Of a DNA stretch of 28,393 bases, positions 22,041 to 28,186 are shown piece by piece. This DNA comes from Candidatus Odinarchaeota archaeon. GTDB lineage: Archaea; Asgardarchaeota; Baldrarchaeia; Baldrarchaeales; DXJG01. The notes under the pieces are model-generated. The model ran no database searches. It was not told where the DNA came from and saw only the letters and a list, made by a program, of their open reading frames with translations. The DNA lies in NCBI GenBank assembly GCA_021158895.1, contig JAGGSW010000046.1, forward strand, positions 1 through 28,393. The letters are read 5' to 3'. Each line of letters begins with the position of its first letter. Positions within the stretch are counted from its first letter, which is position 1. The translations under genes and the position numbers were made by a program.

Positions 22041-22165
22041 GGGCCCGTGGCCTAGCAGGATAACAAAAAAAGCACCTGAAAGGGCGCCGGCCTTCTATAA
22101 GCGTTCTGCTTGCTGCGTTTGAGGAAAGCCGGTGGTCGCGGGTTCGAATCCCGCCGGGCCCGCCA
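22041..22165 (+). tRNA. tRNA-Arg(UCU) with a 29-nt canonical (37/38) intron at 22098..22126 and an additional ~17-nt D-loop insertion (about 22064..22080); CCA encoded
   Basis: Acceptor GGGCCCG/CGGGCCC, discriminator G, CCA at 22163..22165. D-stem GCCT/GGGC encloses 28 nt instead of about 10. Anticodon stem CCGGC (22087..22091) pairs with GCCGG (22128..22132). The loop CTTCTA-[intron]-A gives anticodon TCT. Variable loop TGGTC. T-arm GCGGG-TTCGAAT-CCCGC. Confidence 0.8.
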
Positions 22166-22216
22166 CTCATGACTTTTTGTTTGGAGTGGGTTGTTTGTGT
22201 TTGTTGTTTTGGTGTT

Positions 22217-23698
22217 TTATTTTTGTTTTTGTGTGTTGTTGATTTTTTCAAGTATTAGTTTGATTTTTCTGTGGGTTTCGTTGTCGGTTTTGTTGAGTTT
22301 GTTGAGGAGTGGGGTTATTTTGTTGAGTGTTTCTGGTTTTGTGGTGGTGATTGTTTTTAGGAGGTTGGCTATTTTTGTGATGTGGTGTTTGCTGTATTTT
22401 TTGTTGGTGAGGAGTTTTGGTAGTATTTGAAGGAGTTTTGGTAGTATTTTGCTGATGGTTTGGGGGTGTTTTTTGATGAGGATTGTTAGGTTGTCGCTTA
22501 GGTTTTCGTAGACTTCTTCGTATGGGTGGGTGAGGTATTCTGTTATTTTGGGTAGTGTGTCTTCGATTAGCTGTGGGTAGTCTATTCCTATGTATAGTAG
22601 TGTTAGTGCGGCTGATGTGCTGAGTTCTTGGTAGGTTTCGTTATAGGTTTCGTTGTATAAGTTTTCTTTGAGTTTTGGGGTTAGTTTTAGAACCATCTTG
22701 GAGGATTTGAGGGCGAGCCACTCGATGGTTTCAATGGTGTATTCGTTTAGTTTGTCCCAAATTTTTTCTATTTTTTCTTCTACCTGTTTCGGATATTTTT
22801 TCCAAACTACGTGTATTATGTCTATAAGTAGTTCAGCGGTGTCCCAGTCAGTGAGGGAGTCCATTAAGGCTTCAAATAGCAAGTCTATTTCTTCTTTCAG
22901 TATATCAACGTTATTTTCTGCATGGTTCCATAGGATAGATGCTGCTTTATAACGAATGGGATCATGTCTTAGACAAGTCACCAAGTCTCGGGTTATGTTT
23001 TTAATTGTTTCAGGCTTTCTACTTCCGATGTTTTCGATTATTTCTAATGCTATGAGGATAACTTCGTCATTTGAGTCATGTAGAAGTTTTGCTAAGTCGG
23101 ATATCCTGTTATCGAATAATTCTGGGTATTTTTTTGAGACTTCTAATATTGCCTCAGCTATTGCTGTACGAGCATGTTGACATCTATTTGGGAAGCCTGC
23201 AAACTCGTCGTGTGGTAAATCATCTAGGTTGTAAGGGTCTTTGCAGGGTCTACTGAGTTTTAGAAAAAGTATGTCGACTTTATCTTTGAATACTTCTGGC
23301 CGTTTAGCCGCTAAACTTGAAACAACTGTTGCTAAATGTTCGTAAACTCTATCATTTCTCTCCTCCAGTCTCCCAAGAAGTCTTCTAACAGCGAACTCAA
23401 ATTTCTTCTGACCCATATTGGAGATTTCGTCCACGATCTGTTGGAGAGTTTCTGCAATATGTTCCCTAATCTTATCACTTGGATCGTTCAACTTGTCAAT
23501 GAATCTCAGTATAGCCCACTCAAGCCTTTCGCCTTTCAAACACTTAATTTTTTCGGCGAATTCTTTTACTCGATCTTTGATTACAATTTCGCGATAATCA
23601 ATACTAGAGTCGTTAAGTTCCCGAATAATGTCCTTAATAATATTAAAGGTAGGTTCTTCTCTGGATTTGTTCTTTGAGTTTCCTTGGTTCAACACCAT
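22217..23698 (-). CDS. HEAT-repeat protein, paralog of 1649..2989
   Basis: 493-aa ORF. It shares blocks with the 446-aa paralog: RPCKDPY...HDE...FPNRCQHAR, KKYPELF, LAKLLHDSNDEV, WKKYPKQVEEKIEKI, IGIDYPQLIEDTLPKI, LIKKHPQTISKILPKL. It carries one extra repeat relative to the paralog. Confidence 0.85.
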   Translation of the reverse strand: MVLNQGNSKNKSREEPTFNIIKDIIRELNDSSIDYREIVIKDRVKEFAEKIKCLKGERLEWAILRFIDKLNDPSDKIREHIAETLQQIVDEISNMGQKKFEFAVRRLLGRLEERNDRVYEHLATVVSSLAAKRPEVFKDKVDILFLKLSRPCKDPYNLDDLPHDEFAGFPNRCQHARTAIAEAILEVSKKYPELFDNRISDLAKLLHDSNDEVILIALEIIENIGSRKPETIKNITRDLVTCLRHDPIRYKAASILWNHAENNVDILKEEIDLLFEALMDSLTDWDTAELLIDIIHVVWKKYPKQVEEKIEKIWDKLNEYTIETIEWLALKSSKMVLKLTPKLKENLYNETYNETYQELSTSAALTLLYIGIDYPQLIEDTLPKITEYLTHPYEEVYENLSDNLTILIKKHPQTISKILPKLLQILPKLLTNKKYSKHHITKIANLLKTITTTKPETLNKITPLLNKLNKTDNETHRKIKLILEKINNTQKQK

Positions 23699-23769
23699 TC
23701 ACCTAGTTGTTCATATTTATGTATTCGAGAGAAAAGCTATAAACTTGGTGAAGCTTCAGTAGAGTCATT

Positions 23770-26700: not shown

Positions 26701-28137
26701 AATTTCGTCCACAAGCAAAATTGCATTTCTAACCTCATCAACACTGGCAACAAGTTTTCCAGCATAACCGCTTCCAAAACGTTTCCTTTCGGCTTTTGGC
26801 GGCCTCCAAAACCTCCCAACAATAAAAGGTATGCTTCTAGCTTTATGTCTGAAATTTATTTTCGGGGTTTTAGCCGATTTGCTGAATACTTTACATTTTG
26901 GCGGCGTGTAATAACTTATATGTTTAAACCTTTTTCTTACGTAGCTTCTCGGAGGTTTTCCTCGGTGAATTATTGCTTTAACATGTTTTCTATGAAGGGT
27001 GATTCTATAAGTTTGCCTAGAGGTTGTTCTTCGCCCCAGTTTGAAGCCCAAAGTTATATTATTGTTGTTGTCGTAGATTTCGTAGGGGTTAACTGTCGAG
27101 TTTGTTTCCTCAATTTCATCTACGACTCTAAATTCTACGTAGCCCTCCACTACTTCGCTGGTAAAATTGTCGACAATTTGAACAGGGAGATACACATGTT
27201 CTTCAGCTAGTTCATAGGTTCCGGAAGATAGAACTGACTGCACCGAAGCAATGTATTCTCCGTTCAAATATGTTTCTCCATCATAAGTTAATATTGCTGC
27301 GACGCTAAGCTCTTCGAAAAAGGAAACCACGGAGCTGTTACCGTAGATCTCTTTTTCCCTGCCCATGTTGCAAAACGGTAAATAAACGAACTTCAACTTA
27401 CTTAAGCTACTTACACCTAGTTCCTTTACTAAATATTTCAAAGTTTCACCGTTTACAACAGCTACATTGTTTTCTCCATGCATTAACATTCCATGAACCT
27501 GCAAAGTTTCATTTAAGACACCGTGAGTTAAAATTATTAGATAGGTTTCGCTTATCCTTCGGTCTTGCTCAGCTAGCCGCAGCAAATACATCAGGTTTAT
27601 CGCTGTACAATAGTTTCCCGCCATGATTATGGCCGCATCTCCAACCTCCTCTGCGAACTTCAAAATTTCATCTACAACTATGCGTGTTCTTTCATCGCTA
27701 AACAACGTTTCATTTAAAATAGCGATATCTGTCACCAAGAAAGCTAGGACAAGTATACCTGTACGATTAATATTTGCCACGGATTCTTCATAAATTTTTT
27801 CAATGCCCATGCTTAAATATCCCGTTGCGTTTTTCCCTGTGAGCCAGCTTTCCTGGACGTTTGAGTTCAATGTGATGCCTTGACCAATATTCGGTATGTT
27901 ACTGAGTGGGGACACTGTTACTCTGCTAATTATTTCCTCTTCCAAAATGTTTACGGGCGTTCCATTCTTGAATCCTTGGAAATTTGGGTTGAAGCTGTCA
28001 ATGTAGATTTCAGGGGTTTCGTAGCTTGCAAGTTCATCTAATATTTTTCCTTCACCTGTTGCCATGAGTCCTGCTGTTGAAAACTCCATTAAGAGAATCA
28101 ATAAGACAACTATCGCCAATTGAAGCTTGACTTTCAT
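23770..28137 (-). CDS. Very large (1455 aa) secreted/membrane-anchored protein of unknown function
   Basis: Uninterrupted 4.4-kb ORF, with GGAGGG 8 nt upstream of the ATG. It starts with an N-terminal hydrophobic leader, MKVKLQLAIVVLLILLMEFSTAGLMA. A ~330-aa N-terminal domain follows, rich in N-x-S/T sequons. Residues ~366-456 form a ~90-aa Arg/Lys-rich tract. Next are long amphipathic-helix regions and a charged coiled-coil-like region. The C-terminus holds a cluster of hydrophobic helices (AIFIIIFATTCFTGHIIGI, IYAYMALSLIAKILI, FLGCMLNGILIGMYL, PTMYLIGTILG). Confidence 0.85.
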   Translation of the reverse strand: MKVKLQLAIVVLLILLMEFSTAGLMATGEGKILDELASYETPEIYIDSFNPNFQGFKNGTPVNILEEEIISRVTVSPLSNIPNIGQGITLNSNVQESWLTGKNATGYLSMGIEKIYEESVANINRTGILVLAFLVTDIAILNETLFSDERTRIVVDEILKFAEEVGDAAIIMAGNYCTAINLMYLLRLAEQDRRISETYLIILTHGVLNETLQVHGMLMHGENNVAVVNGETLKYLVKELGVSSLSKLKFVYLPFCNMGREKEIYGNSSVVSFFEELSVAAILTYDGETYLNGEYIASVQSVLSSGTYELAEEHVYLPVQIVDNFTSEVVEGYVEFRVVDEIEETNSTVNPYEIYDNNNNITLGFKLGRRTTSRQTYRITLHRKHVKAIIHRGKPPRSYVRKRFKHISYYTPPKCKVFSKSAKTPKINFRHKARSIPFIVGRFWRPPKAERKRFGSGYAGKLVASVDEVRNAILLVDEIFNAIYKNYYGVKNAVYRWIDATFNAPWSKWMRKPVKSILDNTVFRGANFIVNFAKQYLKTVVSVAYSMIRAGKTLSELVAALIIAAIAKFANGILKYFSWTMDKLLGALSKVLSIDLNWVRKILRKWVDRSIKFLDNAVAYSERLLKNSVEKFINSITSVFNTLWKNAVKPLLTKLLTNFMDFTIDAYLQLAEMIATLVVEGGLNKKLADNIMNTAAKIINFLISIQPPEVQLSSYYKLYMTWLYTGLMAGVFARRDNEKSTNISWHHRKIYREMENYLGKSVKYVSFTRFDDIYIIFRQGQATEMWRDANRPCDIIGRVERIVLNEKLSEIIKEGTQLVEYDKESGKIKRIILEYGKTTKGKKRRRYHSWYGDIAIIQTIHMNINGESVEFSIVWHGYLNQFTDPYERTLKKAMEKFDTKIQNGVLYSDKGKPIALMSKFIPCEIKTEDITLKGYRIVLGIRMEIQKSEGRFKPCRELKENYGKIASKPKTENKATKTSKLVEKLRSKGIMEFIYRFDHGTGLDDGMLGKNWLEKTKKVKQIINKQAEFWRTYANKYKAREGKLPSFYNLISQSVAEVHPLVIDNHAEIIIKGYDPVFLNEILMQHTELCYILKKVEERLEEEGLTNQKKQVKQTRENIENWLKQNYKEYYEKLHTKVIETLKQAVNEAKTKGKLKKNMSADKIRNAIDPKYTKIQDGKKIEIRVLTEKIRGIYKESGNWNFRLLDNYRNSQKELRIQARNEAYLKDLGELGEDVKTTTIELPTKAPEKGVIQHHKDLLDIFQKPKVKETFKNILGKSLNAAASAIFIIIFATTCFTGHIIGIKIYKRLPNNVKMVLKTNYGKIYAYMALSLIAKILIDVDDWQDTWNVIKRTKGENSIKNVVKTAVQTFLGCMLNGILIGMYLEGNINVVLADNIIPYIAQTVFGDNAWIFTKIIYPLIDTAIQIIGNGGPTMYLIGTILGNTWTQLLQQAVNW

Positions 28138-28172
28138 AGTTTAACCCTCCAACCCAATATTAAATCTGATAA

Positions 28173-28186
28173 CAAAGTTTAAATAC
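28173..28186 (-). promoter_or_regulatory. TATA-like promoter element of the 1455-aa gene
   Basis: The minus-strand element GTATTTAAACTTTG lies about 36-49 nt upstream of the ATG at 28137. It matches the element at 5156..5169 at 13 of 14 positions. GGAGGG (complement of 28145..28150) sits between the box and the ATG. Confidence 0.5.

Follow-up and report, generated by a model that had tools for sequence, protein, structure and literature searches.

The 28,393-nucleotide contig JAGGSW010000046.1 of a Candidatus Odinarchaeota archaeon (GenBank assembly GCA_021158895.1; the whole stretch analysed is called the window here) carries, at two loci designated A and B, genes for a very large membrane protein and for a HEAT-repeat protein. 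The best explanation, to which a probability of about 60% is assigned, is that these genes form a rare two-gene module combining a surface protein with a HEAT partner, a module that is intact at locus B, wrecked at locus A and evolving by cassette exchange. Locus B would be the working copy, probably a single operon. Its first gene would encode a Sec-exported protein composed of a caspase-like ectodomain, a basic stalk, a helical region with a transmembrane (TM) segment at residues 556-574, a variable part of ~700 residues and a C-terminal membrane bundle; the second would encode a cytoplasmic HEAT solenoid that binds the variable region and couples the surface head to the cell interior. Exchange would involve the ectodomain half on one side and the C-terminal half with its partner gene on the other, type B halves going with HEAT proteins and type A halves with the family of a supposed orphan gene at locus A. 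At this second locus, a resident type B gene was overwritten by a type A C-terminal module and its partner, after which a 1.9-kb microhomology deletion and a frameshift completed the damage, with the old HEAT partner stranded downstream.

The gene pair and its conservation

The coding sequences that an earlier note on this DNA had placed at the two loci (the 1455-residue protein P0001 and HEAT_B at locus B, HEAT_A and a 369-residue protein at locus A) are all present as open reading frames (ORFs) at the coordinates of Table 1. The end-to-end alignment claimed there for the two HEAT proteins is confirmed, with 38% identity over 436 residues (E 2e-81). Both contain tandem HEAT repeats above the curated cut-off, HEAT_A scoring 96.6 bits against PF02985 (cut-off 23.5) and 94 bits against PF13646, and HEAT_B 25.7 bits against PF02985. 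HEAT_B is only 35-38% identical to all other HEAT proteins compared. A Cys/His-containing insertion, RPCKxPY...FPNRCQHAR, is specific to the family.

Comparison with HEAT/ARM adaptors (PBS-lyase-type HEAT proteins, alphaRep, the adaptin trunk) reveals shared Pfam HEAT families, and in the PDB consensus HEAT/ARM designs match best by sequence, with AP-3 delta, CAND1 and AP-1 gamma next in line. The window proteins differ from these adaptors in that the matches are generic repeat matches, in their own insertion and in a length of 440-490 residues only. Identity with an adaptin, the large subunit of adaptor protein (AP) complexes, was considered and rejected: HEAT_A exceeds the Adaptin_N cut-off (68.6 versus 37 bits) but covers only positions 108-257 of 524, HEAT_B stays under it (29.8 bits), and no other AP subunits are encoded nearby in the window. 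A prophage tape-measure identity was likewise set aside, the PHROG tape-measure matches being weak and located on the HEAT repeats.

In four of four species-representative loci, found in a search that started from HEAT, the big gene ends 35-55 nt upstream of the HEAT gene on the same strand, and at all informative metagenome loci a big gene or its remnant lies directly upstream of HEAT. The same order, on one strand and with short spacers, is found at P0002, P0003, L031, L022-25, L028, L029 and L032. The neighbourhood survey, set beforehand as a test of the proposed pairing, thus identifies a conserved module (4/4 genomes plus the metagenome loci). All HEAT-subfamily members that were found follow a big gene, but some big genes lack a HEAT gene. 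The Baldrarchaeia homolog P0008 is followed by two paralogous genes for proteins of ~945 residues (L009 12667..18370; 29% mutual identity, no Pfam match), and this pair may represent a further, third type of partner.

Strains with 88-100% identical flanks carry mosaic, hypervariable HEAT alleles (L034 3856..5319, L027 209..1672); the L034 allele is without the RPCK...CQHAR insertion and is ~40 residues longer. In HEAT_B, an exact tandem repeat of 19 nt with 21-nt spacing (22410..22449), encoding ILPKLLQ/ILPKLL, looks like a recent in-frame duplication of seven codons.

Upstream of the big gene, the shared 14-nt promoter element proposed for the two loci proves real. The window has exactly two occurrences of the pattern GTATWTAAACTTTG, one per locus, against 0.11 expected, and a TTTAAA(C/T)TTT-type box precedes the homologous gene in most other loci. 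Scans for sigma-70 promoters and intrinsic terminators did not rise above shuffled background, these models being uninformative for an archaeon.

The gene pair is real, very rare and apparently undescribed, and is found mostly in Asgard metagenome-assembled genomes (MAGs). A word-indexed search of 5.8 billion clusters yielded eight proteins: a hypothetical protein from a Ca. Odinarchaeota MAG, which P0001 matches with 100% identity, and seven further homologs. An exhaustive profile search with residues 90-740 returned 20 matches among 1.84 billion representatives. The sources, under their depositors' taxon labels, are Odin-, Baldr- and Heimdallarchaeota; Methanobacteriota and Planctomycetota label one short, partial MAG contig each. 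Mis-binning is probable for the 'Planctomycetota' P0015 and the 'Woesearchaeota' L025, both on short contigs. P0001 has no match in Pfam, PDB, PADLOC or PHROGs, and scans of the four window proteins, P0007, P0027, P0035 and the downstream genes elsewhere against Pfam, PADLOC and PHROGs gave nothing past generic HEAT. A literature search combining Odinarchaeota or Asgard with caspase-like, surface and HEAT-repeat terms found nothing relevant. The distant Heimdallarchaeota homologs (2661 and 1988 residues, with LamG domains) adjoin a tyrosine integrase and toxin-antitoxin-like genes for PIN, DUF433, MJ0235 and TumE proteins (L036 16725..17606, L037 115..1796).

Proposed cassette exchange and the fate of locus A

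Two types of C-terminal half occur in the family. Identity between P0007 (type A) and P0003 is 72-95% as far as residue ~600 and drops to about 18% after it, the switch falling just past the invariant motif FLDxAVAYSE. In P0035, a type A C-half (50% identity to that of P0007) is joined to an N-half unrelated to the family, which argues that the exported head is interchangeable. This other N-half (L038 2331..6767) is beta-rich, with Ig-like repeats and a basic stretch rich in W, K and V, and has no caspase-like domain. P0007 and P0035 are followed by partner genes of 420 and 414 codons, and a partner of this family also follows the type A fragments of L012, L034 and the window. The L012 locus keeps only the 3′ 570 nt of a type A gene with its partner (90.5% DNA identity to L038), beside an intact type B gene. 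Type A C-halves always occur with the family of 370-420 residues, and HEAT always with type B or its remnant. The C-terminal half and its partner gene would thus be swapped between strains as a unit, discordantly with the ectodomain half.

Similarity between the C-terminal modules of the two types is marginal. A GGP motif that had been suggested for the C-terminal ends of the two window genes does not stand up well as a pairwise similarity (BLASTP E 0.076; hhalign E 0.042 over 24 columns), and is nevertheless invariant in the family alignment. The N-terminal module said to be shared by the same two genes is secure: the short gene of locus A (4397..5109) matches the 1455-residue protein with 45% identity over 89 residues (E 8e-21).

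Locus A is syntenic with the P0002, P0003 and P0007 loci through genes for an NTP-transferase, DUF4269, S3Ae, DHH and S15 proteins. In a relative with 95% identical flanks (L006), the site is occupied by the intact 1449-residue gene P0002. Alignment with that locus by blastn places one breakpoint at window position 4864, corresponding to P0002 codon 82, and the other at 3029, 24 nt before the P0002 stop codon (L006 12326); between them, 4.08 kb of the P0002 gene are exchanged for 1.83 kb of other DNA. The incoming DNA comprises a type A C-terminal membrane module (a 148-residue ORF at 4397..4843), the gene for the 369-residue protein and its 3′ flank. In agreement, the last ~150 codons of the short gene align to P0007 residues 1368-1516 (36% identity, E 9e-33).

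An intermediate is preserved in L034, where P0002-like codons extend to ~295 and are followed by 578 type A codons in another frame, then by the same 369-residue gene (98.6%) and by HEAT. Removal of 1924 bp from L034, with the junction TAGATATTG/TAAATATTG, yields the window allele; this is a microhomology deletion. The frameshift is a 1-nt deletion in a T4 run at about 5019-5022; the resulting truncated ORF of 30 residues recurs in four independent assemblies, and in some assemblies the 148-residue ORF is split further into 77 and 88 residues. A strain with a 99.5% identical neighbouring NTP-transferase still has an intact big gene and HEAT at site A. Locus A is therefore an ancestral, syntenic module site that now holds a chimeric recombinant pseudogene and a stranded HEAT partner, and not a miniature module. 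The earlier argument that the pairing had survived a more than six-fold size difference fails because the 237-codon gene results from a cassette replacement, a 1.9-kb deletion and a frameshift; it is a frameshifted chimera, not a small paralog. Nor is the 369-residue protein the orphan it was taken for: homologs of 414-420 residues exist, one behind P0007 (420 residues, 28% identity, E 2e-36) and a 414-residue one downstream of P0035 and in L012. That its gene might be a piece of the deleted gene body is rejected, as it has no similarity to either big protein.

This layout recalls the polymorphic CdiA-CT/CdiI and Rhs systems, and a tentative, on balance unlikely alternative is that the module is an effector/protector system in which the N-terminal part presents a variable C-half that the HEAT or 'orphan' protein neutralises, new cassettes displacing old ones. 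The conserved N-terminal part gives way abruptly to a variable one past a conserved motif, a cognate gene lies downstream, and partner type tracks the type of the C-half. Locus A has the displacement layout itself (N-terminus, new C-module with its partner, then the last eight old codons and the old partner), truncated or stand-alone C-modules with partners are found in L012 and L026, and HEAT alleles are hypervariable between near-identical flanks. Against this reading, the variable half is huge, ~800 residues ending in a membrane bundle, and not a small soluble toxin; Pfam, PDB and fold searches recognise no toxin domain in it; the partners are large, at 370-490 residues; the fusion junctions in L034 and in the window are out of frame, so that no functional swap has been observed; and no delivery or secretion apparatus is found among the window genes.

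Anatomy of the big protein and its head domain

Hydropathy reveals an N-terminal signal-like helix, with its peak at residues 7-25 and kept in homologs, the strongest internal TM candidate (residues 556-574, in the helical domain) and a C-terminal cluster from residue 1285. N-x-S/T sequons are unevenly distributed, with nine in residues 58-360 versus 3.8 expected and two elsewhere versus 6.8 expected. All nine conserved sequons fall within residues 58-360, and in every ortholog sequons reach 2-6 times expectation there and are depleted elsewhere. This pattern suggests that residues ~28-365, and probably the chain on to residue 555, lie outside the cell, and that the ectodomain at ~28-365 is probably N-glycosylated. 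The stalk that follows is strongly basic (26 K+R versus 3 D+E across residues 351-450). The last conserved motif of the helical domain, FLDxAVAYSE, lies at residues ~613-622. Because the type switch occurs ~60 residues past the TM candidate, the type-specific part would be cytoplasmic and within reach of the HEAT protein, which has no signal. No fold match was obtained for the variable C-half.

A partial parallel is offered by the YhgE/Pip-EsaA membrane proteins, in which one N-terminal TM helix precedes a large, helical ectodomain and a TM bundle at the C-terminus. The big protein resembles them in its hydrophobic helix at the N-terminus, its long helical middle part and its several TM helices near the C-terminus. 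It differs in having no Pfam match and in that the sequons put only its first ~365 residues outside.

The head would most likely be a cysteine peptidase or transpeptidase of clan-CD type at the cell surface, judging from the predicted structure and the invariant His-Gly and Cys. In the AlphaFold2 (AF2) model, residues 95-285 form an alpha/beta domain (overall pLDDT, the model's per-residue confidence score, of 50) with the element order b1-a1-b2-a2-b3-[HG]-hairpin-a3-b4-[C], in which His205-Gly206 follows the third strand and Cys256 the fourth. The top Foldseek matches in the PDB are caspases-7, -3, -6, -2 and -8 and a SAVED-CHAT protease, with E-values of 0.017-0.4 and probabilities up to 0.96. 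His205, Gly206, His215, Gly216, Lys247 and Cys256 are invariant in homologs of merely 24-30% identity, and the putative catalytic dyad of His205-Gly206 and Cys256 is invariant across 11 sequences.

With clan CD (caspases of C14, legumain/GPI8 of C13, clostripain of C11, gingipain of C25, and CHAT) the head would share a predicted alpha/beta sandwich, a His-Gly ending b3, a Cys ending b4 and a beta hairpin between the two. It differs in lacking a significant sequence or profile match to C14, C13, C11, C25 or CHAT, in a second invariant His-Gly (His215), in its place on top of a 1455-residue polytopic membrane protein and in having been found only in a few Asgard-labelled lineages. In Heimdall homologs the head domain is fused to LamG domains, which also speaks for an extracellular position. 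Secreted or luminal clan-CD enzymes exist, such as gingipains and GPI8. A clan-CD-like fold is estimated to be slightly better than an even bet, and an active enzyme somewhat less probable than the fold.

Several observations weigh against the module as drawn. Concerning the head, the Foldseek E-values are weak, none reaching 0.001; a Pfam search finds no peptidase family even at E<=10; a profile of diverse head domains has no significant match in the PDB, where the whole-family profile has none either; and hhalign against an approximate caspase-3 sequence gives E 0.11, with the His in register. Concerning topology, the ectodomain is not set apart from the very basic stalk by any TM helix, hydropathy is the sole guide beyond residue 365, and AF2 models of both halves, built on alignments of 7-8 sequences, are poor (mean pLDDT 50 and 56). 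Concerning the pairing, no adjacent HEAT gene is found at P0004, P0005, P0006 and P0008, four big-gene lineages that are mostly Baldrarchaeota-labelled or without label. In L026 and L027 the big-gene end and HEAT are very unequal in divergence: L026 combines HEAT_B at 99% with no more of the big gene than its last ~130-185 codons, and in L027 an identical big-gene end is joined by a HEAT protein with just 66% identity to HEAT_B. Recombination can therefore separate the two genes. Finally, HEAT_B may have a promoter of its own, since the 71-nt spacer before it contains AT-rich TATA-like strings.

Table 1. Features of loci A and B in the window
Feature	Coordinates	Strand	Basis
Intact 1455-residue 'type B' big membrane protein P0001	23770..28137	-	ORF
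Sec-type signal peptide or N-terminal anchor, residues 1-27 (MKVK + hydrophobic core)	28057..28137	-	hydropathy peak; kept in homologs
Predicted extracellular alpha/beta domain, residues ~95-310 (His205-Gly206, His215-Gly216, Cys256)	27208..27855	-	AF2, Foldseek, conservation
Basic stalk/linker, residues 366-450	26788..27042	-	charge profile; basic or Ser-rich linkers in distant homologs
Conserved aromatic-rich helical domain, residues 451-735	25933..26787	-	family alignment, AF2, hydropathy
Variable, sequon-poor, Lys-rich region, residues ~640-1270, putatively cytoplasmic; defines 'type B'	24328..26220	-	P0007/P0003 comparison
C-terminal membrane module, residues 1271-1455, with invariant LN[VI]DD and GGP motifs	23773..24327	-	family alignment, hydropathy
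HEAT_B, 493-residue HEAT-repeat partner, putatively cytoplasmic	22217..23698	-	Pfam HEAT, family alignment
HEAT_A, 446-residue intact partner of the displaced gene	1649..2989	-	strong Pfam HEAT; 92.6% identity to HEAT behind P0002
N-terminal remnant (codons 1-82) of a P0002-like big gene	4864..5109	-	95.5% DNA identity to L006 7007..8247
Foreign 1.8-kb cassette replacing codons 83-1441 of the resident gene	3030..4863	-	blastn breakpoints vs L006
369-residue 'orphan', of the partner family of type A big proteins	3287..4396	-	homology to the 420-residue gene behind P0007
Residual 3′ end of the displaced P0002-like gene, its last ~8 codons and spacer	2990..3029	-	identity block resumes at L006 12326
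TATA-like element of locus B, GTATTTAAACTTTG, ~40 nt upstream of ATG	28173..28186	-	pattern match; similar boxes at homologous genes
TATA-like element of locus A, GTATATAAACTTTG	5156..5169	-	pattern match; similar boxes at homologous genes
Putative tRNA-Arg(UCU) with two introns, convergent on HEAT_B	22041..22165	+	Rfam 49.8 bits at 22041..22162; splicing trial
tRNA-Gly(GCC) with 34-nt D-loop intron 1299..1332, convergent on HEAT_A	1284..1392	+	ARAGORN after intron removal
tRNA-Gly(TCC), just upstream of the locus A promoter	5561..5638	-	ARAGORN/Rfam-type scans; same place in L006, L010, L031

Genomic setting, remaining alternatives and significance

The DNA between loci A and B encodes S19e, eIF-6, FtsY, aspartate carbamoyltransferase, FtsZ, NEP1 and LUD/CCG proteins; since housekeeping genes fill it, the window is core chromosome, neither provirus nor plasmid. 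Its strong, strand-specific purine skew tracks gene orientation (AT skew up to +0.56 / -0.40), and this skew together with a G+C content of 36-40% seems typical of a thermophile with Lys/Glu-rich proteins.

Both intron-containing tRNA genes described earlier are present, and their adjacency to the module is real. In its Rfam match, the first has a D-loop insertion of 23 nt and an anticodon-loop insertion of 31 nt; its anticodon is probably UCU (Arg), if spliced at position 37/38. The second escapes ARAGORN and Rfam unless its D-loop intron is removed, after which ARAGORN calls it cleanly. The introns of both are non-canonical, and standard tRNA finders overlook or under-score the two genes. 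A third tRNA gene, Gly(TCC), was absent from the earlier description. The two tRNA-Gly genes (GCC on the plus strand, TCC on the minus strand) form an inverted repeat that brackets locus A (1333..1404 / 5552..5623, 72 nt, 82% complementary) and could promote inversion. Immediately upstream of the locus B tRNA, a DUF434/DUF5616 protein is encoded at 21323..22030; its C-terminus and the flanking DNA are of extreme A/C-rich low complexity, mirrored past the tRNA (inverted repeat 21973..22027 / 22176..22230). In non-syntenic loci, tRNA genes of differing identity (Ala-TGC, Lys-CTT, Gly-TCC) also precede the big gene by a few hundred nucleotides (L007 5717..5793; L013 6591..6667 and 6858..6982; L009 7365..7458; L006 7470..7547), a recurrent proximity without integrase.

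An involvement in virus interaction, either as a surface receptor or sensor with a HEAT adaptor serving antiviral defence or exclusion, or as a virus-targeted surface protein that diversifies to escape, appears doubtful. It would account for strain-level presence, absence and mosaicism and for the Heimdall homologs beside integrase and toxin-antitoxin genes. HEAT/ARM sensors are common in defence systems, and HEAT_A has weak PADLOC matches to OloA and HEAT-ARM_XIII; these matches, however, reflect generic repeat similarity and have no counterpart for HEAT_B or the big protein. Head and HEAT profiles find no relatives among IMG/VR viral contigs, and the window setting is one of housekeeping genes.

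It is improbable that the module is cargo of a degraded integrative element targeting tRNA genes. Such an origin would explain why tRNAs lie less than 1 kb from a big gene or a HEAT gene in at least four different settings. Site A has Gly-TCC and Gly-GCC, site B has Arg-TCT, Ala-TGC occurs in both L007 and L013, and L009 has Lys-CTT. With about one tRNA gene per 30 kb expected, on our own estimate, this proximity looks non-random. But the flanks are syntenic core genes across genomes, viral relatives are lacking in the search just mentioned, a Pfam scan of window proteins reveals neither integrase nor transposase, and att-like direct repeats, including duplicated tRNA ends, were not found around either locus, the sole long repeat being the inverted tRNA-Gly pair. 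The earlier statement that such marks are absent thus holds. The accessory island proposed with it finds partial support in the strain-variable loci and in the tRNAs that flank the big gene in several contexts; the core-gene setting and the lack of an integrase speak against it.

Two functional paralogous modules with membrane partners of 1455 and 237 residues are very improbable: HEAT_A, the 'orphan' and the 148-residue ORF are still open in most assemblies, this last ORF begins with an ATG right at the junction and a stand-alone version of 188 residues exists in L012, but the short gene combines parts of two different genes and is frameshifted, its C-terminal ORF is broken in some assemblies and the L012 version is a truncation of an L038-like full-length gene.

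The preferred explanation, a surface-protein/HEAT module evolving by cassette exchange, bears on the annotation of the locus and on Asgard biology. At locus A, the small gene is better annotated as a recombinant pseudogene and the 'orphan' as a member of the partner family. For the module families no Pfam model, solved relative or paper was found, and with few exceptions their named members belong to the Asgard archaea, the nearest prokaryotic kin of eukaryotes known so far. An active extracellular enzyme with a caspase fold, if that is what the head is, would represent a new, deeply divergent branch of clan CD on the cell surface. If cassette exchange is the correct reading, the module would offer a first glimpse of strain-level surface polymorphism, and possibly of conflict with kin or viruses, in Asgard populations that are almost uncultured. 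More speculatively, and with only a small chance of being right, the whole may be an Asgard polymorphic surface system in which a caspase-fold or Ig-like head is set on an interchangeable base with a type-matched partner, is displaced as in CdiA-CT/CdiI and Rhs systems, and acts in self/non-self recognition or conflict with a protease as its business end. Were a self/non-self or conflict system of this sort to be confirmed, it would have no described counterpart in archaea.

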